Positions 10,969-29,708 of a stretch of 32,000 nt of DNA are shown here, piece after piece. Made by a program: the position numbers and the translations under genes. The stretch's first letter is position 1. Each line of letters opens with the position of its first letter. The DNA comes from Pyrobaculum aerophilum str. IM2 (GTDB taxonomy: Archaea > Thermoproteota > Thermoprotei > Thermoproteales > Thermoproteaceae), in NCBI RefSeq assembly GCF_000007225.1, contig NC_003364.1:510001-542000 (forward strand), given 5' to 3'. The notes under the pieces were generated by a model that saw nothing but the letters and a program-made list of their open reading frames with translations, had not been told where the DNA came from and made no database searches.

Positions 10969-11430
10969 GTGTCTATAGCTATCTCAGCGCCAGTAGCTGA
11001 GGCGTTGAGAAAGGCGGCAGGAGATAAGGATATTGAGGAGTTTCTAGTTGAGCTACTCTCAGCCAGGCTAGACCCCCCTGAGCGAGTTCAACTCTACCTC
11101 AAGCTACATGAGAAATACTTGAGAGAGGCGGAGGATCTCTACGCGAGAGGCGATCTCCTGCAAGCTGGGGAGAAGTACTGGGGGGCGGCGACTGCGTTGC
11201 TTAACGCTATTGCCGAGAGGCGGGGCTGGGAACATTACAGCCACCGGGACTACAACGTCATAATTAGAAGGCTTTACGAGGAGACTGGGGATAAAGAACT
11301 GGTAATTGGCTTCAGAATGGCGGAGGGCTTACACGCCAACTTCTACCACAACTACATGGGGCCTAAGGACTTCCAATTACACAGAGAGGCTGCACTCAAG
11401 CTGATAGAGAAGCTCAAATCACTTCTCTAA
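10969..11430 (+). CDS. PaREP1-family protein (HEPN-clan helical domain)
   Basis: HEKYLREAEDLYARGDLLQAGEKYWGAATALLNAIAERRGWEHYSH...GLHANFYHNYM matches my recollection of the Pyrobaculum PaREP1/PaREP8 family consensus. It contains an Rx4H string (RRGWEH). Confidence 0.65.
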   Translation: MSIAISAPVAEALRKAAGDKDIEEFLVELLSARLDPPERVQLYLKLHEKYLREAEDLYARGDLLQAGEKYWGAATALLNAIAERRGWEHYSHRDYNVIIRRLYEETGDKELVIGFRMAEGLHANFYHNYMGPKDFQLHREAALKLIEKLKSLL

Positions 11431-12078: not shown

Positions 12079-12456
12079 ATGGGCAGAGAAGAGGTGGAAA
12101 TATTGGGAGCCCGCCTATTTTTAGAAGTAGCTAGAGAAGACCTAAGGGCAGGCAGATACGACCTCGCGGCTTTTCACAGCGAGCAAGCCGCACAACTCGC
12201 GTTGAAATACCTGCTGGCCTCTACTATTGGCCACTATCCCCATACCCACTCTCTAGAAGTGTTATTTAAATTAGCTAAGGCCGTGAGAGAGGACGTTTGG
12301 AGGCTTTACGAGGAAAATAGAATGGCGTTTGAGGTAATGGAAGACGCCTATCTAGGCGGGAGGTACCTCCCCAGAAGATATGCAAAAGAGGTGGCGGAGC
12401 ACCTAGTGGAATTAGCCGGGAGAGTCGTAGAGCTATGTGCCTCCAGTACCTCCTAG
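12079..12456 (+). CDS. HEPN-domain protein, partner of the adjacent minimal nucleotidyltransferase
   Basis: AAFHSEQAAQLALKYLLASTIGHYPHTHSLEVLF and EDAYLGGRYLP are the two conserved HEPN blocks (A.e.alKa.l...G...ktH.L..L and Y..sRYp). It overlaps the downstream MNT gene by 22 nt. Confidence 0.8.
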   Translation: MGREEVEILGARLFLEVAREDLRAGRYDLAAFHSEQAAQLALKYLLASTIGHYPHTHSLEVLFKLAKAVREDVWRLYEENRMAFEVMEDAYLGGRYLPRRYAKEVAEHLVELAGRVVELCASSTS

Positions 12457-12773
12457 CAAGAAGGCGGGTGTTAGAAAACTGGCGGGAGTACGTAGAGGCG
12501 CTATGCGCCGTAGCAAAGGCCCTGTTGGGAAAGGCGCGGGTCATTGTATTTGGAAGCGTCGCCAGAGGGGACTGGGCTCCCGACAGCGATATAGACGTCC
12601 TCATTGTCTCGCCCAACGCCCCAGACGACCCCTGGAAGCGCGCCGAGATATCCCTGACGCTGAAAGACGCCGCCGGAGAGGCCTCCTCAGTCCTCGAGCT
12701 ACACATAGTGACTCCCCGGCAGTACGAGGACTGGTATAAAAAATTCATAGACGCCGAGGTGAAAATCTGTTAA
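12435..12773 (+). CDS. Minimal nucleotidyltransferase (MNT), Pol-beta superfamily
   Basis: VIVFGSVARGDWAPDSDIDVLIV is the hG[GS]x9-13DhDh signature. At 112 aa and overlapping the HEPN gene, it fits a HEPN-MNT toxin-antitoxin-type pair. Confidence 0.85.
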   Translation: MCLQYLLARRRVLENWREYVEALCAVAKALLGKARVIVFGSVARGDWAPDSDIDVLIVSPNAPDDPWKRAEISLTLKDAAGEASSVLELHIVTPRQYEDWYKKFIDAEVKIC

Positions 12774-12812: not shown

Positions 12813-14048
12813 GTGGCGCTGACGCCAGAGGAGAAGCGCAAATTCCTCAAGGCGCTTGAAGAAGACGAAGAGTTCAGACTGGCAGTTGCCGGGGCCATAG
12901 GACTCGGAGAGGTGTTAAAAGAGCTGAGAGATTTAAGAGCCCAGTCGGAGAGATGGCAGAGGAGGTGGAATAGGACTTGGAAAGCCTTTCTCCAGGAAAA
13001 CAACAAAAGATGGGAGGAGAACGAGAGGCGGTGGTTAGAGTGGTATGAGAACTGGAGAAAATTCCTTGAGGAAAACAGTAAGAGGTGGGAAGAGAACGAA
13101 AGGCGGTGGCAAGAATGGTATAAGACTTGGAAACAATTCCTGGAGGAGAATAACAAGCGGTGGGAGGAGAACGAGCGCAAGTGGCGCGAGTGGTATGAGA
13201 ACTGGAAACAATTCTTAGAGGAGAACAACAGAAGATGGGAGGAAAATGAAAAACGGTGGCAAGAATGGTATAAGACTTGGAAAGAGTTCCTAGAGGAAAA
13301 CAACAAAAGGTGGGAGGAGAACGAGAAGAGGTGGCAGGATTGGTACGAAACGTGGAAGAGGTTTTTAGAAGAGAACAATAAGAGGTGGGAGGAAAATGAG
13401 AGGCGGTGGTTAGAGTGGTACGAGACATGGAAAAAATTCCTAGAAGATAACAGTAGGAGATGGGAGGAGAACGAGAGGAGATGGCGCGAGTGGTACGAGA
13501 CTTGGAGAAAATTTCTGGAGGAAAACAGCAAAAGGTGGGAGGAGAATGAAAAACGGCGGCTAGAATGGTACAAGACTTGGGCAGAATTCCAAGAGGACTA
13601 TAGGAAGAGGTGGGACGAGGCCAATAAGAAGTTCCAGTGGCTCATGTCGGCTCTGGAGGATATAAGAGACGCCCTCGGCGGCGGGTTTGAGTACTACACA
13701 GCTAGAGTAGTAGAGGCGTTGCTTAAAGAAAGGGGAGTTGAATGCTCCGTGCGAGTAAACGTCGCACTTCCGGTAGACGGCTTCAAGGAAGTCGACATCT
13801 TCTGCCCACAGCCGCTGGTAGTGGGAGAGGTGTCCGTGGCCGTGAGAACGGCGGAGGAGGCAGAGGGGCTTATAGAACAGCTCAGGAGGTCAGTACAAGC
13901 CGCCGAGAAGCTCACTGGGTCAAAGACGTATGTGAAAGTGCTGGCCGTAGAGTTCGCCTCACAAGAGGCGGCAGAGCGGCTGAAAAAGCTGGCTGAGGAA
14001 GAAGGGGCGCTTTTAATACTAGGCAGAGAGTACCCCCGCCCGTACTGA
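12813..14048 (+). CDS. Trp-rich 25-residue tandem-repeat protein with a C-terminal restriction-endonuclease-like (PD-(D/E)xK-like) domain
   Basis: The 411-aa ORF has 36 Trp, counted from the translation. The core is eight full and two degenerate copies of FLEENNKRWEENERRWxEWYxTWKx. The N-terminus is LTPEEKRKFLKALEEDEEFRLAVAGAIGL. The C-terminal roughly 130 aa (FKEVDIF...VVGEVSVAV...KVLAVEF...GALLILG) has the strand pattern of a nuclease-fold domain, with Ser at the Lys position. Confidence 0.85.
   Translation: MALTPEEKRKFLKALEEDEEFRLAVAGAIGLGEVLKELRDLRAQSERWQRRWNRTWKAFLQENNKRWEENERRWLEWYENWRKFLEENSKRWEENERRWQEWYKTWKQFLEENNKRWEENERKWREWYENWKQFLEENNRRWEENEKRWQEWYKTWKEFLEENNKRWEENEKRWQDWYETWKRFLEENNKRWEENERRWLEWYETWKKFLEDNSRRWEENERRWREWYETWRKFLEENSKRWEENEKRRLEWYKTWAEFQEDYRKRWDEANKKFQWLMSALEDIRDALGGGFEYYTARVVEALLKERGVECSVRVNVALPVDGFKEVDIFCPQPLVVGEVSVAVRTAEEAEGLIEQLRRSVQAAEKLTGSKTYVKVLAVEFASQEAAERLKKLAEEEGALLILGREYPRPY
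12987..13586 (+). repeat. Eight in-frame 75-bp tandem repeats (25-aa units), flanked by degenerate units at about 12912-12986 and 13587-13661
   Basis: Unit boundaries (the TTY codon of FLEEN) fall at 12987, 13062, 13137, 13212, 13287, 13362, 13437 and 13512. The copies differ mainly at synonymous or conservative sites; for example WEENE is encoded as tgggaggagaacgag, tgggaagagaacgaa and tgggaggaaaatgaa. Confidence 0.95.
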
Positions 14049-14745: not shown

Positions 14746-15168
14746 ATGCCAACCAAATTAAAAGGAATGACAAGCCTAGAAATCGCAATAATAGTGGCAA
14801 TAGTGTTAGTAATCGCAATAGCAGTAGGCTGGTACCTATACACCACATTTGCATCGGCTGGACAACAAGCATCGCTAACAGTTGTAACCGGTAATATTAC
14901 AAAAAAGACATCTAGCATTACGCTTTACCTTAGAGTTATACCTCAAGGCGGAGCATCGGTGCAAATTCAAGCTATTGAAATTGCTGGCAAATCAATAACA
15001 GCCATAAAGGTAAATAATGAGACTACTAATATAGTTACTGGTCCAGCATGGGTAACTGCAGATCTTACCAAACAAGTTGATGTGGCTGTTGGCCAAGTGC
15101 TTACTGGAAGGGTTGTACTTAGCAACGGAGCCGTAGCACCTTTCACTGTTTCAGTCTTAGCTGGATAA
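14746..15168 (+). CDS. Type IV pilin-like protein with a class III (prepilin-type) signal peptide
   Basis: The N-terminus MPTKLKG/MTSLEIAIIVAIVLVIAIAVGWYLY has a basic leader ending in KG, Glu at +5 of the predicted mature end, and a 20-residue hydrophobic helix. A beta-rich, Cys-free domain of about 100 aa follows (ITLYLRVIPQGGASVQIQAIEIAG). The gene has clearly lower GC than its flanks. Confidence 0.75.
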   Translation: MPTKLKGMTSLEIAIIVAIVLVIAIAVGWYLYTTFASAGQQASLTVVTGNITKKTSSITLYLRVIPQGGASVQIQAIEIAGKSITAIKVNNETTNIVTGPAWVTADLTKQVDVAVGQVLTGRVVLSNGAVAPFTVSVLAG

Positions 15169-15826: not shown

Positions 15827-16857
15827 ATGGCGGTTTGGAAAAAAAGTAATATGTGGAGTTGCGGTGATAGTACTATTTTTGACATCGTCATATTCGGTAG
15901 GGTTTAAGTTTCTAGACGAGGAAGTGTACATAAGGGCTGGCGCCCAGCAGTGGTCTGGGGTTCCCCCGGCATTAACAATTAATCCCGAGCATCCCCCGCT
16001 GGCCAAGTACATTATAGGCGTTGAGCCCCGCCTTGCCCCTTTATTTGCGGGAATAGCGGTTGTGTTTCTGGCGGGGTGGCTTGGCCGCTTATTGGGCAGG
16101 AGTTTTTGGCTTGTGGCTTTTAGCGTGGCCAGCGATATAGTGTTTACGGCTACTTCCCGTTTTGCGATGTTAGACGTGTTTGTCGCTTTGTTTTCTGTAT
16201 CGGCGGTTTTGTCCTACTTGCTGGGCAGGTAGTGGCTCGCCGGCGTCTTGTGGGGCGCGGCGCTTGCTTCAAAATTCACAGCCGTCTTCCCCCTGTTGGG
16301 ATTCACTGCATATCTTGCCTATAAGGACAGAGGGGCGCTGGGGCCCACGGCCGCGGGCGCCGCGCTTGCCTTTTTGGTGTCTCACGCCGTGGATATTGCC
16401 AACGGGGTCTTCCTATATCACTTTCAATTCTACTGGTGGCTTGTGTCTTTTCACAGCCATAAAAACCCGTTTGAGGGGTGGCTGATTCTTTTCACAGGGG
16501 CGCCGTGGTATGTGTACTATGCCAATCTTGTACAACGGATCTGAGGTGGTAACGGCGGTCTCCAAGCCAGGCGTATATGACGTGTTGAAGTACGAGCTTC
16601 GCATCTCCGCGGCTCCGTGGCTGGGGCATTTAGTATGGAGGGCCGTACCTGTGGAGATTATAAGAGGCCTTGTGGGAGGAGGCGCGGGACTGGGCTGGTT
16701 TCTCGCGGCGTCTTCTGCGCTAGTGGCACAGGCGGGCTGGTTTTATTGGTATTTCGCCGGCGTGGCGCTTTTCTTCCATTTATATACTCGCCGGCTTTTC
16801 GTGGCGTTGCAAATAGTCTTTATCGTCGCGCTGTATTTAGGCATGCCCCAATGTTGA
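15827..16857 (+). pseudogene. GT39/PMT-ArnT-type (phospholipid-carrier-dependent) glycosyltransferase, disrupted
   Basis: FLDEEVYIRAG...INPEHPPLAKYIIG is the DE..Y plus HPPLxKY loop-1 signature of the PMT/ArnT family. It is followed by multi-TM sequence. There is an in-frame TAG at 16230-16232, after which the sequence continues WLAGVLWGAALASKFTAVFPLLG. A frame change falls between about 16500 and 16545. The N-terminal TM helix is only joined to ATG 15827 if the A7 run at 15839-15845 is read as A6. Confidence 0.6.
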
Positions 16858-16939: not shown

Positions 16940-19723
16940 ATGAGGCTTTGGCTTGTGGCCGTACTGGTGGCGGCATCGGCGTTGGCGTACGTCCTCCCCA
17001 CTGAGTCTCTAGATGTGTTTTACTGGGCCACTCCCAGCGCTGTGAAAATTGTGGGACTGGATGGGAGGGTGCTGTGGACTCAGCAGGCAGTTTATCCCCT
17101 AATTGCGACTGACCGCACAGGCAGGTGTTTGGCGATTGCTAACAGGCTGTATATATACGACATTTCAGTTAATATATTCGTCGTGGAAAGGAGCTTGTTC
17201 ACTACTGTGGAGTTATCTCCTCAATTAGTAGAAACGTTGGCCCAGTATGGCATTAGATTGCCCCAGGAAATTCCTGTGGTGTTGAACTTGTCGTTGCCGT
17301 TGCCTCCCGTAATTCTCGCATCTGTGTATAAAACGACGGTGGTCTCTCTCCACACGCCTTACGGCTACCCCCACTGGGCTATTAACCTTGGCCCACGGGC
17401 AAATGTAACTGCCATAGCCACTAATTGTGAATATGTAGTTGCTGCGACTATATTCGGCGAGGTGTATGTAGTTAGAGACGGCAGAATTGTAGATCAATTT
17501 TTTATAGATCCCCTAGGCGCCGTGCCCAGAGCCGCCATGAATAGACAGCCCCTAGATCCGCCGATTACGGCTCTCACGATAATTAACAATACAGTATACG
17601 TGGGGACTTTAACAGGCGATATATACCGCTTTAAATTGCCGACTGAGGCGGAACTCCGATCGGGCAGATTTGACAGGGGCTTTACCAGACTGGGCTCATG
17701 CGGAGGCCCTGTTTATGGCTTATATACAAATCCGACGGGAGATCCCATAGCCCTCTGTTTTGTCAAGAGGGAGAGGCCATACGTGGTAATATATCCGTAC
17801 GGCTTGACTTTCGCTGATCCCGTCTTGATCACATACGGCATTGACACTCCCCGCCTTGTGTCTGCAGTTAGTCAAGACGGGCGTTGGGTATTTGTCGCAG
17901 TGAATAACGAGATTATAGGAATTAGAGACGGAAGAGTCGCCCTCAAATTGCGAACCCCCGCAACTCCCAGCGCAATTGCCTCGTCTTGGAACGGCTCTGT
18001 CGTAGCAGTGGGCACGCTCGCAGGCCACTTCTACTTATTTAAAGACGGAATTCCTACAGTCAGGACGGATCCCATTTCTACTCAGCTTTTGTTGAGAGCT
18101 GTGAGGGGCAACGCCACTGGCAACTTTACTATAAGAGAGGCGTTAATAAGCGTCAAGCCCGTTACGTCAGTCGCAGTTTCTTTTGACGGCCAAGTGGCGG
18201 CTTTAGAGTATTGGGACAGCGTCTACGTGTTATACACCGCGAGGCTTCCATACGTCGTAGATGCGCCGAGTGACTGCCTGCCTCTAGAGGCGGCAGTGGT
18301 CGCTGCTGGCTCAAAGATTACTTATATATATACGCTGAATAAAAGCGGAGTCCTCTACGTGCCTTATGGAGAAGTGGTCATATATCCGTTGTATCGATAT
18401 CTGGGAGATGTGAGGTGTAAACCTGAGCGGAACTTCACTCTAACTATATTCGGCGACGTGGCAGAGCCGTTAGTGTTTAGATACTTTAAACAGTTCAGAG
18501 TATATAGGCAGCCCGCAGAGCTGGTAAGCGGTCCCGACTGGGCCTCCGGGCCTACTCGCTTCTCTGCCGCACTTACGCCGAGTATACAAGTACAAGTCAG
18601 CATCGAGACTATTCCGGCTCTCGCCGATAGGCTGGCCAGACTACAGAGCCTTGTCCTGGGGAGGATTAGAGCCGTTATAGACTCGTGGGAAGTTGACGGC
18701 AAGAGGACTGGCGCCGGATTCAGCTTTATAACAGTGGACGTACAAAAGCCCACTGTTGTGAAGGCTGTGTACAGAGTAGAGGCTCCTGACACAGTATCTG
18801 AGGATGAGTACGGCATAAACCTCGTGGACATAGTGGTGTACGACTCTTTTGGAAATATCATCGACGTAGGGCGTAGGCCGCTGTTCAGCGTCTATCCAGT
18901 GGTTGTAGTTGCCAGGTATACTCCTTCATTTCTCGTGACGGCAGGGAGGGGGGCTACAGTAAATGGCACAGACCAACTCTGGGCTGAGTATCAGTCAGTA
19001 GTAGTGTTTCGTGCAACACCCGTTATAGAATACGGCAATGGAACGCGTGAAGTGTTTGCTAAGTGGCTGGAAACAGGCGAGACGAGCCCGGAGATTAAGC
19101 TCACAGTAACCGGACCCGTCAAGAGAACCCCTGTATATGTAAAGCAGTACTTAGTGAGCGCCTCCCCGCCGGCTAGATTTGAGGGCGTCGCGGGAAACGC
19201 CACTTGGGTTGAGGCGGGAAAGTCCGTGAGGGTATCTATCCCTGCAGTGTTAGCAGAGCAAGGTAGCGTGAGAACTGCCTTTAAGAACTGGGTTGTAAAC
19301 GGCATTCCAAACGCCACGTTAAATAATCCGGTACAAGATTTCGTCGTTAAAGCCCCCCTAAATATCACTTATCAAGTCAAGAGGCAGTATTTAGTGATTC
19401 TGACGTCGCGCTTCGGCGTAGTCCCGCAGAGCATGTGGGTTGACGAGGGGAGCACAGTGGCCGTTGTGCCTAATCCAACTAGCGTGTGGTCGCCGCCTCC
19501 TCTACACTACGTATTTGTCGGCTGGAGGGATGTTTCCACAGGCGTTGTTTATTCATATCCGCAGTTGCCAGTTGCCTACGGCCCCATGACACTAGAGGCC
19601 GTGTGGGCTATAGATCCCATTCCGCTGGTGCTTATCGCCGGCGCCGCCGCGGGCGCGGTTGCGTTAATATGGTTCTTAAGGCGGAGGAGGCTGGCCCGGC
19701 TGATGGCCGAGGTGGCGGAGTAG
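16940..19723 (+). CDS. Large secreted, C-terminally membrane-anchored surface protein: beta-propeller-like N-terminal half plus three B-repeat-like modules
   Basis: The Sec-type signal is MRLWLVAVLVAASALA/YV. Propeller-blade-like strings recur (VVAATIFGEVYVVRDG, VYVGTLTGDIYRF, VFVAVNNEIIGIRDG, VVAVGTLAGHFYLFKDG, QVAALEYWDSVYVLY). Three units of about 75 aa follow with the pattern Y/FLV...G...W.E.G..V...F..W. The C-terminal TM helix is IPLVLIAGAAAGAVALIWFL, followed by RRRRLAR. NxS/T sequons are numerous. Confidence 0.8.
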   Translation: MRLWLVAVLVAASALAYVLPTESLDVFYWATPSAVKIVGLDGRVLWTQQAVYPLIATDRTGRCLAIANRLYIYDISVNIFVVERSLFTTVELSPQLVETLAQYGIRLPQEIPVVLNLSLPLPPVILASVYKTTVVSLHTPYGYPHWAINLGPRANVTAIATNCEYVVAATIFGEVYVVRDGRIVDQFFIDPLGAVPRAAMNRQPLDPPITALTIINNTVYVGTLTGDIYRFKLPTEAELRSGRFDRGFTRLGSCGGPVYGLYTNPTGDPIALCFVKRERPYVVIYPYGLTFADPVLITYGIDTPRLVSAVSQDGRWVFVAVNNEIIGIRDGRVALKLRTPATPSAIASSWNGSVVAVGTLAGHFYLFKDGIPTVRTDPISTQLLLRAVRGNATGNFTIREALISVKPVTSVAVSFDGQVAALEYWDSVYVLYTARLPYVVDAPSDCLPLEAAVVAAGSKITYIYTLNKSGVLYVPYGEVVIYPLYRYLGDVRCKPERNFTLTIFGDVAEPLVFRYFKQFRVYRQPAELVSGPDWASGPTRFSAALTPSIQVQVSIETIPALADRLARLQSLVLGRIRAVIDSWEVDGKRTGAGFSFITVDVQKPTVVKAVYRVEAPDTVSEDEYGINLVDIVVYDSFGNIIDVGRRPLFSVYPVVVVARYTPSFLVTAGRGATVNGTDQLWAEYQSVVVFRATPVIEYGNGTREVFAKWLETGETSPEIKLTVTGPVKRTPVYVKQYLVSASPPARFEGVAGNATWVEAGKSVRVSIPAVLAEQGSVRTAFKNWVVNGIPNATLNNPVQDFVVKAPLNITYQVKRQYLVILTSRFGVVPQSMWVDEGSTVAVVPNPTSVWSPPPLHYVFVGWRDVSTGVVYSYPQLPVAYGPMTLEAVWAIDPIPLVLIAGAAAGAVALIWFLRRRRLARLMAEVAE

Positions 19724-24895: not shown

Positions 24896-25428
24896 GAGAC
24901 GCGTACTTGGCCATAGGGGATGAGTACGAGAGGACGAGGAGGAGGCCGTTGCCAGTGGCGGATTTGGGGAGATTTGGCGAGAGGGCGCTCGACATAGGGT
25001 CAGGTAGGGGGGCCCAGCCCCTTTACTTAGAACACGAACATAAATACGTGGTGCACTGCGATTTACACAGAAGGCTAACCCCCGGCGGAGACTCAGTGGA
25101 GTGCGAGGCCACAATGCTCCCGTTTAGAGACGGCGCATTTGACGTGGCATATTTAATAGCCGTAATACACCACATGCCGCCTGAGGTTGCGTCAATTGCG
25201 TTGAGAAACGCCAGGAGAGTCGCAAAGAGAGTTGTAATAACAACGTGGGCTGTGGCAAAAGGCCGCCAAGTGGGACCTAAATTGTGGGTCGTGCCATGGG
25301 GAAAGAAGGCTTTACGCTACTACTTCCACTATACACACTACGATCTGGCCAAAATGTTGCCAACCATGCCTCTTGCAATGGGAATACTTAAGAGAGGAAA
25401 TCAAATAAATTATTTTGTACTACTATGA
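24874..25428 (+). CDS. Class I SAM-dependent methyltransferase
   Basis: ALDIGSGRGA is motif I, and LPFRDGAFDVAYLIAVIHHM is a Methyltransf_11-type block. The protein is 184 aa. Confidence 0.8.
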   Translation: MEWAKRVRDAYLAIGDEYERTRRRPLPVADLGRFGERALDIGSGRGAQPLYLEHEHKYVVHCDLHRRLTPGGDSVECEATMLPFRDGAFDVAYLIAVIHHMPPEVASIALRNARRVAKRVVITTWAVAKGRQVGPKLWVVPWGKKALRYYFHYTHYDLAKMLPTMPLAMGILKRGNQINYFVLL

Positions 25429-25956
25429 TCCAACAATAAACTGTACTTTCCTAACAGTATAGGGGCTCGGCATTGCCCACTTAACGTAACAACCCGCCCT
25501 TGTGAGATTGACCACATCTCCCACTCTGCAGTTGTACGATTCCCCAAGATCTGCGTATATCTGAACATAGCCCTCGGGCTTGTAGAGGGCCGAAATATTA
25601 TAAACTGCCTTAGAAATGTCGACATAGGCGCTCGCACGCCCTCTGTATGCCTCAAAGCTTATGTATACCACTAAGACGCCCTGCTCGTTGCGTATTGTTA
25701 TTGCGTAGTAAAACGCATCAAACGGCGGTGAGTAGTAAGGCAGAGATATCTGTTGCGTGAAACTATAAACGCCGGAAATAGATGCCGTCGAGGCTCCCAC
25801 GCGGAGCTGGTTGACCACAGAGGCCAGCAAAGCCTCTGCGGCCGCCTTTGCTTCCTCTTCGAAAACAATCTGTGCTTGTGTGTTGACAATCCATGCAATA
25901 ATTACTGACAGAATACCCACGAATGCCATTGAAACGGCTACTTGAAGGGCGTTCAT
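25423..25956 (-). CDS. Pilin-like operon, gene 5: 177-aa protein with an N-terminal hydrophobic helix
   Basis: MNALQVAVSMAFVGILSVIIAWIV is followed by an ectodomain with 2 Cys. Its ATG overlaps the upstream stop as ATGA (25953-25956). Confidence 0.7.
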   Translation of the reverse strand: MNALQVAVSMAFVGILSVIIAWIVNTQAQIVFEEEAKAAAEALLASVVNQLRVGASTASISGVYSFTQQISLPYYSPPFDAFYYAITIRNEQGVLVVYISFEAYRGRASAYVDISKAVYNISALYKPEGYVQIYADLGESYNCRVGDVVNLTRAGCYVKWAMPSPYTVRKVQFIVGS

Positions 25957-26549
25957 CTTAATTCTATAACAACGGGAATTACAACGACAGTGGAGGTATC
26001 TCCAGTATTAAAATTACATTGATCCGCTGAGTATGTCTTTGGTGAGTACACTGCGTAGTAAATGCCCACGCCTAGGGCTCCCTGGGAGGCTGTGTATGTA
26101 ATATTTAACACTACGGCTATATTGCCATATCTGACTATGCGCGGGGCCAGCGACACGGAAGTCCCCCACCCGTTTATTGCAATGGGAGGCTCCGGAGCGT
26201 CTACAAGGCTCCTCCACCTAGTTCCTCTGTAGAGTCCGAAGAGAGATAAATATGGTGATTTATATGTAAGCGTTGTGTTATAAACAGGGGCTCCGTTGCA
26301 CTGGCCCAATGTGGTAGTGGAGTAGGTCAATTCTCCAAATCTCAGTTGGGGCATATTCACAATTTTCTGCGCATAAGCAGCGCCCATGTCCGATTCAATA
26401 GAATCGGCAAGTACATTCAGAAAAGCCACAGCGGCCCTCGCCTCTGCTAATGCCTGGTATTGGTAAATTTGCCACATTATGGCTGGCACCGCGGCAAATA
26501 TGGCGATGAGGACAAAGGCGGTTAGTATCAGTGTTTCCAGGGACGTCAT
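25953..26549 (-). CDS. Pilin-like operon, gene 4: 198-aa protein starting directly with MTSLE plus a hydrophobic helix
   Basis: MTSLETLILTAFVLIAIFAAV begins with the same five residues as the predicted mature end of the 14746 pilin. The protein has 2 Cys and several NxT sequons. There is an ATGA overlap at 26546-26549. The in-frame upstream sequence hits TAG seven codons before the ATG. Confidence 0.7.
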   Translation of the reverse strand: MTSLETLILTAFVLIAIFAAVPAIMWQIYQYQALAEARAAVAFLNVLADSIESDMGAAYAQKIVNMPQLRFGELTYSTTTLGQCNGAPVYNTTLTYKSPYLSLFGLYRGTRWRSLVDAPEPPIAINGWGTSVSLAPRIVRYGNIAVVLNITYTASQGALGVGIYYAVYSPKTYSADQCNFNTGDTSTVVVIPVVIELR

Positions 26550-27727
26550 GGGTACAGCCAGTTGAGTCTATTGGCGGCCAAGGCGTTATTTAGCGCCTGG
26601 GGGCAATTCGTGAGGTTAAGCCAGCCGCGGGGGTGGACAATCCAGTAAGTAGTTGAGGGCGTTTTTAACACGGTGACGTTGTGGGAGGCTTGATATTTAA
26701 CATAGGCCCCTGTAGTGTTGTATAACACTACAGGGGCCGCATTTCTAGTGTTGTCAATAGAACACCACCCATTACCCACCCTATAGACGCCGCAACCACT
26801 ACTACACCCGCTGTCGTATATGCCGGGCTTTGGCGTGTCTCGGGGCGGTATGTACAGGGGTATGTTTCCCACATAAACCTTTATTACATACTCCCCAGCT
26901 ATATTGTTAATCTTATACACAGCGCTGTACTCAGTATAATTCACAAGGTCGAAATCTGCGCGGCCTAGGCTGTAACCAATGGCGTCGCTGGTAAAAGATC
27001 TGGAGAGTACGTAAAAGTCCGCGGCCCAGGCATACGGCCTAGATACTGTAATATTAATGCATTGAACCGTTGCGGGACAGTAGTTATCTATGCCGAGCAC
27101 TCTGACTAGCACTCTAAACTCCTTAGTTGCATTGAGGTTAGATAGTGCAAGGAGCGAGACGTCCACAATTACAGAGACGCGGTAGCCAGCTTCATAGGTC
27201 TTGTTGGGGAGGACTACCGTGAACTTATTTGCTTGTAGCAGAGCCCCTTGATTTATAAAAAACACGCCTTGGCTAGTTGACGTGCCATTGGGAGGCTTAG
27301 AGATCCACACTGCTACTGCAGTTCTGTCACCCCTTGCGGCAATGGTTTTGCAACCTGACAGAGACCCCGGAATCTCCGCGTTTAGGCCTAGCGCCGCTCT
27401 GTTTAATACAAAAAACTGCATTGCCTTGTTCACCGCCGCCGAGGTTTTAACGACTTGAGGCCCCTGACAATAACTACTTGACGTAGTTAGCAGCAGAGCA
27501 TACAGTGCCACGTTTTCTGTGTAATTCAACAGCGCGACGAGGCCTATGTAGTCTACATACGATGTAATAACCTCCACCGCCTTTGAGACGTCTCTTGAGA
27601 ATACTCCATACGCGGCTCTGACGCCTCCAAAACCGGGCGATGAAGATGACACTGACTGGAGTATTAAAACTACGGTAATGGCTACTGCGATTATAACTGC
27701 AGTTAATAGAATTACCTGGCCCCTCAT
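26546..27727 (-). CDS. Pilin-like operon, gene 3: 393-aa protein with an MRG/Q class III-type N-terminus
   Basis: MRGQVILLTAVIIAVAITVVLILQ is followed by an ectodomain with 8 Cys and many sequons (NYT, NGT, NKT, NAT, NIT, NTT, NVT, NLT). I chose the start at ATG 27727 because it forms an ATGA overlap with the upstream stop. The ORF-track start at 27814 would overlap the upstream gene by 91 nt. Confidence 0.7.
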   Translation of the reverse strand: MRGQVILLTAVIIAVAITVVLILQSVSSSSPGFGGVRAAYGVFSRDVSKAVEVITSYVDYIGLVALLNYTENVALYALLLTTSSSYCQGPQVVKTSAAVNKAMQFFVLNRAALGLNAEIPGSLSGCKTIAARGDRTAVAVWISKPPNGTSTSQGVFFINQGALLQANKFTVVLPNKTYEAGYRVSVIVDVSLLALSNLNATKEFRVLVRVLGIDNYCPATVQCINITVSRPYAWAADFYVLSRSFTSDAIGYSLGRADFDLVNYTEYSAVYKINNIAGEYVIKVYVGNIPLYIPPRDTPKPGIYDSGCSSGCGVYRVGNGWCSIDNTRNAAPVVLYNTTGAYVKYQASHNVTVLKTPSTTYWIVHPRGWLNLTNCPQALNNALAANRLNWLYP

Positions 27728-28089
27728 GCCCACACCGCTATACATACTGTCGTTCCGTTGGGCAAAACTGTTGCCAGCGATATTGCAATTCGCGGAGAGG
27801 GCGGCGTAGTGCACACGCCATTAGTGGGCAGATAGACGTCAACAGAGGCTAAGGGATCTATAAGCGCCGCCTCCCTCCTCGCCTGCGCCACTGCTTCCTC
27901 CCAGCTATACTGTAGCCGGAAAAGGAACTCCGGGCTAGCCGCCAACCTCACTGCAAATGCCGACAGCTCAGAAACCCTCCCTCTTTCCCCCGCCTGTACT
28001 GCTATAGACGCCGGGGCCGTGTAGTTATACAGAGCGATGGTTAGAATGAGAATAAAAGCGGCGAAGGAGAGCTCAAGAACCCACCTCAT
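27724..28089 (-). CDS. Pilin-like operon, gene 2: 121-aa protein with an N-terminal hydrophobic helix
   Basis: MRWVLELSFAAFILILTIALY is followed by an ectodomain with 2 Cys. There is an ATGA overlap at 28086-28089. Confidence 0.65.
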   Translation of the reverse strand: MRWVLELSFAAFILILTIALYNYTAPASIAVQAGERGRVSELSAFAVRLAASPEFLFRLQYSWEEAVAQARREAALIDPLASVDVYLPTNGVCTTPPSPRIAISLATVLPNGTTVCIAVWA

Positions 28090-29681
28090 CTCCTAAACAC
28101 CCACAAGTCGACAATGTAGGTCACCTCGCCGGCGTCGGCCAGAGCTGAGGCGTGGGAGACTGCAAGCGCCTCGGGCCTCTTATCAGTCCACCTTTTCCAC
28201 GTGGCGAAGTGAATTTCGTAGAGCGGCGGGAGGCCCCCCGTCAGCGGCATGACAATAACATCGCGTTGCGGTATGCCGTTACATTTTGGCGGATCGCCCT
28301 GTGAGTTCCTCTCCACAGTGGCTATCAAGAACTTAGCTCTGCCTATAAAACTCCATGGTATAAGACAGGCACCGCTAGACAGAGAATCTTGGTTACACAC
28401 CTCGTTAAAGTCAACTGAAGAGCCGGGATTTATTGTGGCGCTTTGTACCAAAGGCACGGTTTTTCCACCTAGAAAGACGCCAATATAACGGAGGCCTAGA
28501 GCTGATACCCCTGGGTCGTCACAACCGCAGAGCGAAGTCGATGTTGCGCTTTGGATGAGCTTTGAGTGAACCACATACACGCCGGCGTTCTGTCTTGCCA
28601 CAAGGCCTACAAGTGATATTTGGTATGGACTGTAGTAAGTGTAGTTAGCTCCCCTCACTGCGACCCCCCTCACGTAGGCAAAGGCAAATACCGTGCCGCC
28701 TGGCACTGGGATTGCGCCTATCCCGTCATCTCCAGTCTCGCCATTAACACAAACTACCTGAGGCGCGGTTGCGGGGGCGTTTTTATCAGGCGGCTTACAC
28801 CGGCCATGAGGCTTGGTTTTTTGGGCATCAGCTTCAGCGTATATGCCTTCGCCTCTCACTACGACCCTTGTATTCGCTGGCTCTCCGCTGAGCTGGAAGT
28901 CGGGGCAGTACACATCGCCCGGATTTATAGTAATGGGAGCGGATAGTAGGTTAACGCCATTAAACTCTATAGAAGTTATAGTTGCTGGCTGCACCCCGTC
29001 GTTATACAGCGCAATGGTGAAATTCCACTTGTTGCCCTTTTTGTAATAGTACGCCCCTAGTATTTCTATGGAATACTGGGCAGTAGAGTACTGCGGCCAG
29101 TAGAAGACACAAGCGTGGTAGCTGTAAATGCCAGGCGGACTTACTCGAATAAGCGCTTGTGTATCCATGAGTTCGATGTTTATATTCAACGCAGGCCTTA
29201 TATAAATCTCCATGTCGTATTTATCCCAATCAGCGCCAAAAAGGCTCCTCAAGATCCTCTCATATACAGACGGGTCGATAGACTGTTGTTGGGGGGCTCC
29301 CCAGAGGTATATGCCGTAACCAATTTTTGTAACCGGAACGTCCTGCCCCGCTACGTTTATCCTGCACAGCGCCTCGGCGCCTACGCCCGACGCGACGGCC
29401 AGTGCTAAAAGCTTTCTGGAGTCCAGTTGCCCCGGAAGGGAGGGATCTGCCAGTCCCAAGTCTTCTACTTGGTTCAAATCGGTCCAATCGGGTGGGGATC
29501 CCGGAGTCGTTAAGATTTTTTTGAGGACTTCCTGGGCGTCTAGGTGTGTTCCCGCGACTGTTACGACTTGTTGTGTTGAAGCCGCGAAGTAGTTTGAAAG
29601 TACATAGATGCTTAGCATGAACATGGCCACAAGGGTGAATGCTACAAGCATGTCGATTGATTCCATGCCCTTCACGGACAC
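28086..29681 (-). CDS. Pilin-like operon, gene 1: 531-aa protein with a KG/M class III-type N-terminus and a large Cys-rich ectodomain
   Basis: With a GTG start the N-terminus is MSVKG/MESIDMLVAFTLVAMFMLSIYVL, which places Asp at +5 after the KG. The protein has 10 Cys. An internal string WNFTIALYNDGVQPATITSIEFNG resembles ITLYLRVIPQGGASVQIQAIEIAG of the 14746 pilin. An alternative start is ATG 29666. Confidence 0.7.
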   Translation of the reverse strand: MSVKGMESIDMLVAFTLVAMFMLSIYVLSNYFAASTQQVVTVAGTHLDAQEVLKKILTTPGSPPDWTDLNQVEDLGLADPSLPGQLDSRKLLALAVASGVGAEALCRINVAGQDVPVTKIGYGIYLWGAPQQQSIDPSVYERILRSLFGADWDKYDMEIYIRPALNINIELMDTQALIRVSPPGIYSYHACVFYWPQYSTAQYSIEILGAYYYKKGNKWNFTIALYNDGVQPATITSIEFNGVNLLSAPITINPGDVYCPDFQLSGEPANTRVVVRGEGIYAEADAQKTKPHGRCKPPDKNAPATAPQVVCVNGETGDDGIGAIPVPGGTVFAFAYVRGVAVRGANYTYYSPYQISLVGLVARQNAGVYVVHSKLIQSATSTSLCGCDDPGVSALGLRYIGVFLGGKTVPLVQSATINPGSSVDFNEVCNQDSLSSGACLIPWSFIGRAKFLIATVERNSQGDPPKCNGIPQRDVIVMPLTGGLPPLYEIHFATWKRWTDKRPEALAVSHASALADAGEVTYIVDLWVFRR

Positions 29682-29692
29682 TTTAAGTGTTC

Positions 29693-29708
29693 TTAATATT
29701 TATATTTT
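29693..29708 (-). promoter_or_regulatory. TATA-like box of the five-gene pilin-like operon
   Basis: The minus strand reads aaaatataaatattaa, 12-27 nt upstream of GTG 29681. The same 93-bp spacer carries cttaataact about 26 nt upstream of the divergent SufD-like ATG (29775). Confidence 0.45.

Follow-up and report, generated by a model that had tools for sequence, protein, structure and literature searches.

What do five tightly overlapping genes of Pyrobaculum aerophilum IM2, each encoding a protein with a pilin-like N-terminus, contribute to the cell when no pilus assembly gene lies beside them? The genes occupy 25423-29681 on the minus strand of a 32,000-nucleotide (nt) stretch of the P. aerophilum chromosome (NC_003364.1, positions 510,001 to 542,000; here called the window); genes 1 and 3 match PAE0931 and PAE0929, respectively, with 100% identity. 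A sequence-only reading of the window had proposed that they form an undescribed archaeal pseudopilus or pilus-tip module. Our analysis bears out the pilin-like character of the proteins and leaves a role at the pilus tip as the best reading, and it takes away the novelty. We think it likely that the five genes encode the minor-pilin initiation or tip complex of the type IV pilus built from PilA, a system assigned to subclade 4E in the census of Makarova, Koonin and Albers (2016; PMC4858521). By sequence and locus comparison, the gene-1 family is arCOG05475, which that census already lists. The module is laid out as follows:

29693-29708, minus strand, TATA-like element AAAATATAAATATTAA, about 20-27 nt upstream of the gene-1 GTG
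28086-29681, minus strand, gene 1 (PAE0931), 531 amino acids (aa) from GTG
27724-28089, minus strand, gene 2 (probably PAE0930, to judge from the numbering), 121 aa
26546-27727, minus strand, gene 3 (PAE0929), 393 aa
25953-26549, minus strand, gene 4, 198 aa
25423-25956, minus strand, gene 5, 177 aa

The open reading frame (ORF) call returned the five consecutive genes at the sizes first read from the sequence, and all four junctions between them are the ATGA stop/start overlaps (TCAT on the plus strand) that had been described. The TATA-like box noted upstream of the five is present, and similar elements stand before the module in relatives: AAAATAT[AT] recurs at the same distance in P. ferrireducens (locus L001), P. 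islandicum (L002) and a Pyrobaculum metagenome contig (L008), with a variant in a second such contig (L003). The spacing between the element and the GTG is consistent with a leaderless or near-leaderless mRNA.

This arrangement is not peculiar to P. aerophilum. A first scan of the genome collection with the gene-1 alignment gave no confirmable relative; the same five genes, mostly with the same 4-nt overlaps, were found in L001, L002, L003 (in a changed order) and L008, in a Thermoproteus metagenome-assembled genome (MAG; L004), in a third Pyrobaculum metagenome contig (L007) and in a P. calidifontis-type contig (L009). The overlaps are kept at 4/4 junctions in L002, L007 and L009, and at 3/4 in L001, L004 and L008. 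Because both the five-gene order and the overlaps recur across these loci, the arrangement is not a product of chance. Hidden Markov models (HMMs) of the Pyrobaculum families recognized the positional counterparts in L004 and L009, with E values of 1e-24 to 9e-28 for gene 1, 6e-8 (L004) and 6e-9 (L009) for gene 2, 2e-11 (L004) and 1e-7 (L009) for gene 3, 7e-24 (L004) and 1e-18 (L009) for gene 4, and 1e-24 (L004) and 3e-24 (L009) for gene 5. The gene-1 model reaches across the Thermoproteales, and those of genes 2-5 reach only Pyrobaculum and Thermoproteus.

Within this conserved framework the module varies. In L003 (8808-13175) it is rearranged, with the gene-4 and gene-5 homologs preceding genes 1-3, and gene 1 is leaderless. 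Two strongly diverged versions share one chromosomal neighbourhood, marked by Hel308, MCM and SufBD, as seen by comparing L009 4288-10727 with 25423-29681 of the window: a P. aerophilum type of 531-121-393-198-177 aa and a P. calidifontis/Thermoproteus type of about 440-146-1146-228-187 aa. That versions so diverged occupy one fixed position on the chromosome suggests that an orthologous, surface-exposed module is evolving fast. We rejected an origin of the module from a mobile element or virus, given the conserved synteny with Hel308, MCM, SufBD and TiaS in all Pyrobaculum loci.

Are the products pilins? One N-terminal hydrophobic segment is present in every one of the five proteins, the N-termini are those first read and are conserved in relatives, and the Cys counts of 10, 2, 8, 2 and 2 for genes 1-5 were confirmed. 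The description of the ectodomains as rich in sequons holds in part: gene 3 has 9 where 4.0 are expected from shuffled sequences (P about 0.01) and gene 2 is marginal, and genes 1, 4 and 5 are at chance. Type IV pilins characteristically have about 20 hydrophobic residues directly behind the cleavage site, in many cases with an acidic one at +5, and the proteins of the module agree with this. The +5 residue is Glu in PilA, Asp in gene 1 (Glu in distant relatives), Glu in gene 4, Gln in gene 5 (Glu in Thermoproteus) and Leu in gene 3; gene 2, a small pilin-like protein that begins MRWVLELSF..., has its Glu at position 6. A short leader ending in Gly or Ala, usually preceded by Lys or Arg in such proteins, is present in genes 1 and 3, and is absent in this genome for genes 4 and 5 and present in some of their orthologs. 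No in-frame start codon lies upstream of genes 2, 4 and 5 in P. aerophilum, and these three are thus truly leaderless in this species. The lollipop architecture of pilins, a long N-terminal helix carrying a beta-rich head, is found in AlphaFold models of genes 1 and 4. Searches of the five proteins against Pfam and NCBIfam gave nothing above threshold, and no sequence match to the FlaF or FlaG families. What carries the pilin-like reading is the class III (prepilin peptidase type) motifs, the exchange of leader-bearing and leaderless forms among orthologs, the lollipop models and, in Thermoproteus, a T2SSE-family ATPase that adjoins the module.

The class III signal of gene 1 is hidden by its annotation. 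PAE0931 is annotated from its second Met (526 aa), and the GTG at 29681, which is the sole in-frame upstream start codon, adds the class III leader MSVKG (29666-29681). The mature protein would begin MESIDMLVAF... and consists of a pilin-like N-domain followed by further beta-sandwich domains. The GTG start had been proposed from the sequence, and relatives with MRG or VRG prefixes support it: in many of them a [KR]G cleavage motif is followed by [MLI]ES[IF]DML, often 5´ of the annotated ATG. Many database homologs of gene 1 share the second-Met truncation. Truly leaderless forms occur as well, in L003 and L007, where the GTG opens MESIDML and MELIDML, respectively. In the AlphaFold model (predicted local distance difference test, pLDDT, 78.5; predicted template modelling score, pTM, 0.71) a 37-residue helix spanning residues 7-43 begins just past the KG site, with Met6 as the +1 residue, and leads into alpha/beta and beta-sandwich domains. 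One of these domains matches a subunit of the Sulfolobus acidocaldarius Aap pilus locally (Foldseek, 8q30, probability 1.0 over 104 columns), and the gene-1 sequence profile also touched the same chain, weakly. Multi-domain matches to macroglobulin and immunoglobulin folds in the Foldseek output were disregarded as generic, their template modelling scores being very low.

An exhaustive profile search with gene 1 recovered relatives in Thermoproteus, Vulcanisaeta and divergent Pyrobaculum, together with independent proteins of about 170 aa whose starts (KGQ, RGQ or KAQ) are of class III type and which share a motif, SPGxPxxW...LGLA. Residues 1 to about 140-170 of gene 1 correspond to the whole length of these proteins in other archaea, from which we conclude that gene 1 is a modular pilin, a pilin module onto which beta domains have been grafted. 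DUF7287 did not match gene 1 itself; it matched the small relatives over their full length at E values of 1e-3 to 5e-2 and 13-20 bits, under the Pfam gathering cut-off of 27.

Genes 4 and 5 have leaderless starts. Gene 4 begins MTSLETLILTAF..., and its first five residues (MTSLE) are identical to those of mature PilA (MTSLEIAIIV...). Glu5 is conserved in at least 90% of the homologs, and both Cys residues are invariant across 41 aligned sequences. A leader of the form M..RRLRG is present in 17/43 Pyrobaculum gene-4 homologs and the remainder start at +1; the leader-bearing form reads M-T-(A)-R-R-(R)-L-R-G and then xxSLELL, where the P. aerophilum form starts directly with MTSLE. Gene 5, which begins MNALQVAVSMAF..., is leaderless in P. 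aerophilum; leaders are seen in its orthologs of Thermoproteus (MRG|ITAIE..., the bar marking the cleavage site) and of the P. calidifontis type (MRG|SISTS...). When aligned to the Thermoproteus orthologs (MSSRRALRG|LEALETAILL for gene 4 and MRG|ITAIEAALL for gene 5), Met1 of both P. aerophilum proteins coincides with the +1 position. Gene 4 was modelled by AlphaFold (pLDDT 89.6, pTM 0.79) as a 53-residue helix (2-54) and then an all-beta domain of about 12 strands. Comparison of the gene-4 and gene-5 profiles with PDB chains gave nothing useful.

Gene 3 stands apart at the +5 position. It has the class III start MRG|QVILLTAV, with R2, G3 and Q4 conserved in at least 90% of 52 sequences, and carries 8 Cys residues and 9 sequons. 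All orthologs inspected, like the consensus, have Leu at +5, so that the acidic residue is absent there. It is also the member most variable in size, at 381-1206 aa among orthologs. The N-terminus of DUF7261 weakly matched 45/52 gene-3 homologs, at 15.7 bits against a Pfam gathering cut-off of 27 and over the N-terminal 25 residues only; a search of PDB chain sequences with gene 3 gave nothing useful. Because it lacks the acidic +5 residue, is the most glycosylation-prone member and has the largest size range, gene 3 is, on its sequence, a candidate cap or adhesin subunit.

A major pilin gene lies in the same window:

14746-15168, plus strand, pilA, major type IV pilin, 140 aa, MPTKLKG|MTSLEIAIIVAIVLV

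The sequence-only reading, which had remarked on the absence of assembly machinery nearby, made no mention of this gene, about 10 kb away; it was right about the machinery, as Pfam scans found no ATPase, platform protein or prepilin peptidase in the window. PilA of the window is orthologous to the pilin of P. arsenaticum whose filament structure was solved by cryo-EM (PDB 6W8U; E=1e-31, with the alignment starting at Met8). In that pilus a 7-residue leader is removed before Met, and Glu in the N-terminal helix was noted as unusual among archaeal pili (Wang et al., 2020; PMC7347861). The Glu5 of PilA is shared, as an acidic +5 residue, with genes 1 and 4. The major pilin, like PAE0931, had been annotated from its second Met (Wang et al., 2020). 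That paper concerns the major subunit only, and its main text does not mention minor pilins, an operon or a gene cluster.

The linkage of pilA to the module is closer in relatives. In L001, L002 and L008 the two share a strand, with pilA 3-5 kb upstream. In P. islandicum a single strand carries, contiguously, pilA, a leaderless pilA paralog, an 846-aa anchored glycoprotein and genes 1-5. P. ferrireducens and L008 keep the same strand and relative order, L008 with one intervening gene; in P. ferrireducens the leaderless paralog comes after the large protein and other genes intervene. PilA is the probable filament partner of the five proteins.

The second, leaderless PilA-like gene (e.g. MSSLEVAFLLGVIVAVALGVGWWLL) was seen at L002 6953-7354, L008 5734-6135 and L001 9556-9921. 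It adjoins pilA in L002 and L008 and the large protein in L001, and no such counterpart stands beside pilA in the P. aerophilum window.

Evidence for a link to the assembly machinery comes from more distant loci. In the Thermoproteus MAG, about 1 kb past the module, a 524-aa protein with about eight transmembrane (TM) segments is encoded by a gene that overlaps the gene for a 495-aa PF00437 (T2SSE) ATPase. This ATPase lacks the Cys-rich N-domain described for subclade 4D in PMC4858521. In L006, an unrelated archaeal MAG, a small gene-1 relative sits among class III proteins beside a T2SSE gene and two T2SSF genes. For P. aerophilum itself, Table S3 of the same census records three type IV pilus ATPases, all of clade 4, and shows no archaellum.

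Has this system been described before? Makarova, Koonin and Albers (2016) reported that type IV pilus systems of the Thermoproteales are very diverse. In subclade 4E the major pilins (arCOG03739/03740) are mostly stand-alone genes, and the other secreted components are minor pilins or adhesins; the set listed comprises arCOG05475, a predicted minor pilin and signature of the 4E system, with arCOG05473, 05474, 07433/07007 and 07434/07006. The same passages describe loci of Vulcanisaeta and Caldivirga with homologs of arCOG05475 and arCOG05473 and no ATPase or TadC. A 2026 preprint likewise describes the 4E locus as split between machinery genes and distant pilin genes, and links the system to the P. 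arsenaticum filament.

The P. aerophilum rows are not visible in Tables S1/S4 of the census, and the mapping was therefore made through Caldivirga. The gene-1 profile matches the first gene of a six-gene Vulcanisaeta cluster with no ATPase nearby, and a scan with the Vulcanisaeta-type proteins led to a Caldivirga sp. locus whose first gene the gene-1 HMM matches at 9e-13. This locus consists of L13 (179 aa, minus strand), maximal ORFs of 533, 725, 535, 259 and 183 aa, and a 984-aa ORF (minus strand). The C. maquilingensis rows visible in Table S4 give L13, arCOG05475 at about 462 aa, arCOG10501-arCOG10504 at about 698, 532, 256 and 185 aa, and a protein of about 970 aa (minus strand). Since the sizes and flanks reproduce these rows, the gene-1 family is, by this correspondence with the visible part of the table, arCOG05475. 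The census gives arCOG05475 in 14 organisms, all of the Thermoproteales in its set, and the other 4E pilin arCOGs in 9, comprising 7 Pyrobaculum and 2 Thermoproteus; these numbers agree with the reach of our gene-1 and gene 2-5 HMMs. We infer that genes 2-5 belong to specific 4E arCOGs.

The module can accordingly not be called undescribed: its gene-1 family was published in 2016 as a predicted minor pilin of the 4E system. Nor does the statement hold that it recalls no archaeal pilus locus, as 4E loci without ATPase and TadC had been described in the same work. Placement in a described system had been named beforehand as what would undo the claim of novelty, and arCOG05475 provides that placement. 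Literature searches with the locus tags PAE0924-0935, DUF72xx names or leaderless pilins found nothing relevant. The visible passages of PMC4858521 also note pilins encoded away from the machinery. Unlike the present analysis, they give no mechanism and no analysis of leaderless members or of a cap.

How might the five proteins work together? A single promoter would yield one transcript, on which ATGA coupling would keep the five products in balanced amounts. Each protein would be inserted in the membrane by its N-terminal helix, leaving a glycosylated, disulfide-bonded beta domain outside. A prepilin peptidase would remove the 3-5-residue leader from genes 1 and 3, and genes 2, 4 and 5 would need no cleavage, with the initiator Met already at the mature +1 position. 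The leaderless members could dispense with the peptidase in this way because mature PilA itself starts with Met: the Met-Thr-Ser-Leu-Glu start of gene 4 is the same kind of N-terminus as that of the processed pilin. The five helices may then bundle on the platform protein, forming a complex that starts PilA polymerization and ends at the distal tip of the pilus. Gene 3, with no acidic +5 residue and as the largest and most variable member, could serve as the cap, and the beta-sandwich domains grafted on genes 1 and 3 would present an adhesive or receptor surface. In this proposal the ATPase, platform protein and peptidase would act in trans from elsewhere in the genome.

Such a complex has parallels in bacteria, in which minor pilins form a complex at the tip, capped by a subunit without Glu5, from which assembly begins (PMC10191384). 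Like PilHIJK and GspHIJK with PilY1/PilC (PMC10191384, PMC13533445), the module encodes several pilin-like proteins together that are expected at low abundance, with one large subunit that lacks the acidic +5 residue (compare GspK/PilK) and a large adhesin-like member, and from the comparison the module would be expected to initiate the filament and to occupy its tip. Unlike those complexes, the archaeal proteins show no sequence or profile similarity to their bacterial counterparts and their globular folds are unrelated as far as tested, so the analogy is functional only. Modular pilins that carry adhesive domains are known as well (PMC10191384): gene 1, and probably gene 3, resemble PilB/PilC of Streptococcus sanguinis (PMC8179133, PMC10191384) in joining a pilin module to grafted beta domains, and differ from them in the domains grafted and in that adhesion by genes 1 and 3 is only putative. 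A further likeness is to FlaF/FlaG and to the DUF7287/DUF7261 proteins, which have a pilin-like N-terminal helix that is not always processed; unlike true members of the two DUF families, all of our matches score under the Pfam gathering thresholds.

Several results weigh against a tip complex of the PilA pilus and must be set beside the evidence for it. The Gly/Ala cleavage motif was never seen in gene 2. The leaderless proteins lack a positive N-terminal charge, except for Arg2 in gene 2, and the sequons and Cys residues of their C-terminal domains are the grounds on which a topology is assumed for them. Bacterial GspH/I/J/K and PilV/W/X/FimU profiles from Pfam and NCBIfam matched none of the five proteins at E values up to 1. 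Against the PDB, the gene-4 model gave weak immunoglobulin-like matches in Foldseek, with no pilin, pseudopilin or significant neighbour among them, and the idea that genes 4 and 5 are paralogs was dropped, the hhalign comparison being too weak (probability 12%). In P. aerophilum the pilA block is inverted with respect to the module, so that the two lie on opposite strands about 10 kb apart, and no ATPase, platform protein or peptidase was found within 10 kb of the module in any Pyrobaculum locus examined.

These points leave room for other explanations. The five proteins could form a short pseudopilus or surface filament of their own, with roles such as secretion, substrate capture or cell-cell contact, using a type IV ATPase and platform protein without being built into the PilA pilus. 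We regard this as unlikely. In its favour, the module has no pilA nearby in L004, L005, L009 and L015; against it, no member resembles a small, abundant major subunit, and the presence of pilA near the module and on the same strand in three Pyrobaculum lineages, and the five residues that open both gene 4 and mature PilA, speak for the shared pilus instead. Also in its favour, the three ATPases of P. aerophilum include one of the pilin-less subclade 4D, according to PMC4858521, and archaeal class III proteins do work outside pili, as in the bindosome; the ATPase beside the Thermoproteus module, without the 4D Cys-rich N-domain, argues the other way. A rather improbable alternative is that the proteins stay uncleaved in the pseudo-periplasm as a pilin-like base or scaffold that anchors the machine to the S-layer, much as FlaF and FlaG of the archaellum would, which the same census counts among pilin-like proteins. 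This would suit the three of five proteins that have no leader in this genome, the consistent lack of a cleavage motif in gene 2, and the C-terminally anchored large glycoprotein that adjoins the module in three loci. It fits poorly with the lack of any FlaF or FlaG match and with the interchange of forms with and without a leader among close relatives, whose +1 residues stay aligned, since this interchange suggests that the mature N-terminus is what matters, as in pilins that assemble.

It is very improbable that these are ordinary signal-anchored surface glycoproteins, co-transcribed by chance and unrelated to type IV filaments. The lack of a Pfam or NCBIfam assignment and of machinery in the window is what such proteins would show; conserved class III motifs, leader dimorphism and the lollipop models of genes 1 and 4 are not, and neither are the T2SSE ATPase and platform-like protein next to the module in Thermoproteus, the T2SSE and T2SSF genes in L006, or the membership of gene 1, by sequence comparison, in a published family of pilus components. 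We therefore return to the minor-pilin tip or initiation complex of the PilA pilus. The comparisons establish the structure of the operon, the pilin-like architecture and class III ancestry of its products, the family of gene 1, and the linkage to pilA and to an ATPase in relatives; co-assembly, tip location, priming role and cleavage are what we propose from them.

What the locus adds to existing knowledge is modest. The family has been catalogued computationally and the major subunit of its pilus has been solved; the modestly new elements are the switching between leader-bearing and leaderless forms and the candidate cap, gene 3, without an acidic +5 residue. A bolder interpretation, which we put forward only tentatively, is that the module is the archaeal counterpart of the bacterial initiation or tip complex in which several members are naturally leaderless, peptidase-independent pilins whose leaders are gained and lost freely between close relatives. 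It is conceivable, with a similar degree of doubt, that this counterpart comprises a large, variable cap and four other subunits, which unlike the cap carry an acidic or polar residue at position 5 or 6. Bacterial filaments depend on a tip complex of minor pilins. The operon is a compact and conserved candidate for such a role in an archaeal pilus that has a major subunit of solved structure and that acts as receptor for a virus, PFV2, on P. arsenaticum. By alternating between forms with and without a leader, the family also provides a natural experiment on whether incorporation requires cleavage of the leader.

Between pilA and the module lies a large surface protein that may have a part in the system:

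16940-19723, plus strand, 927-aa glycoprotein: Sec signal, weak beta-propeller signature, TM segment and RRRR tail at the C-terminus

It has 13 N-glycosylation sequons where 3.5 are expected, and no PDB sequence match. In L001, L002 and L008 the gene for the large glycoprotein immediately precedes gene 1 on one strand; the L004 and L009 clusters lack it. It is possibly an adhesin, an S-layer-like protein or an accessory protein, and its membership in the system is uncertain.

Other features of the region touch the pilus less directly. Between pilA and the 927-aa gene, at 15864-16857 on the plus strand, three-frame fragments (15864-16232, 16248-16544 and 16510-16857) of a polytopic membrane protein were found, for which Pfam gave no family match; an intact 354-aa version exists in P. 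ferrireducens (L001 5034-6098), and the P. aerophilum sequence is probably a frameshifted pseudogene. Upstream of pilA, at 12813-14048 on the plus strand, a 411-aa protein contains eight tandem 25-aa (75-nt) repeats, NNKRWEENERRWxEWYxTWKxFLEE, the probable cause of the strong GC and AT skew seen at 13-14 kb. P. ferrireducens has a related, much shorter protein of 268 aa (L001 2275-3081) that shares the N-terminal sequence and the repeat motif. In the interval from MCM to the pilin region, the plus strand carries an overlapping HEPN/nucleotidyltransferase gene pair (12079-12773) and a PaREP1 family gene (10969-11430), both typical Pyrobaculum accessory genes.

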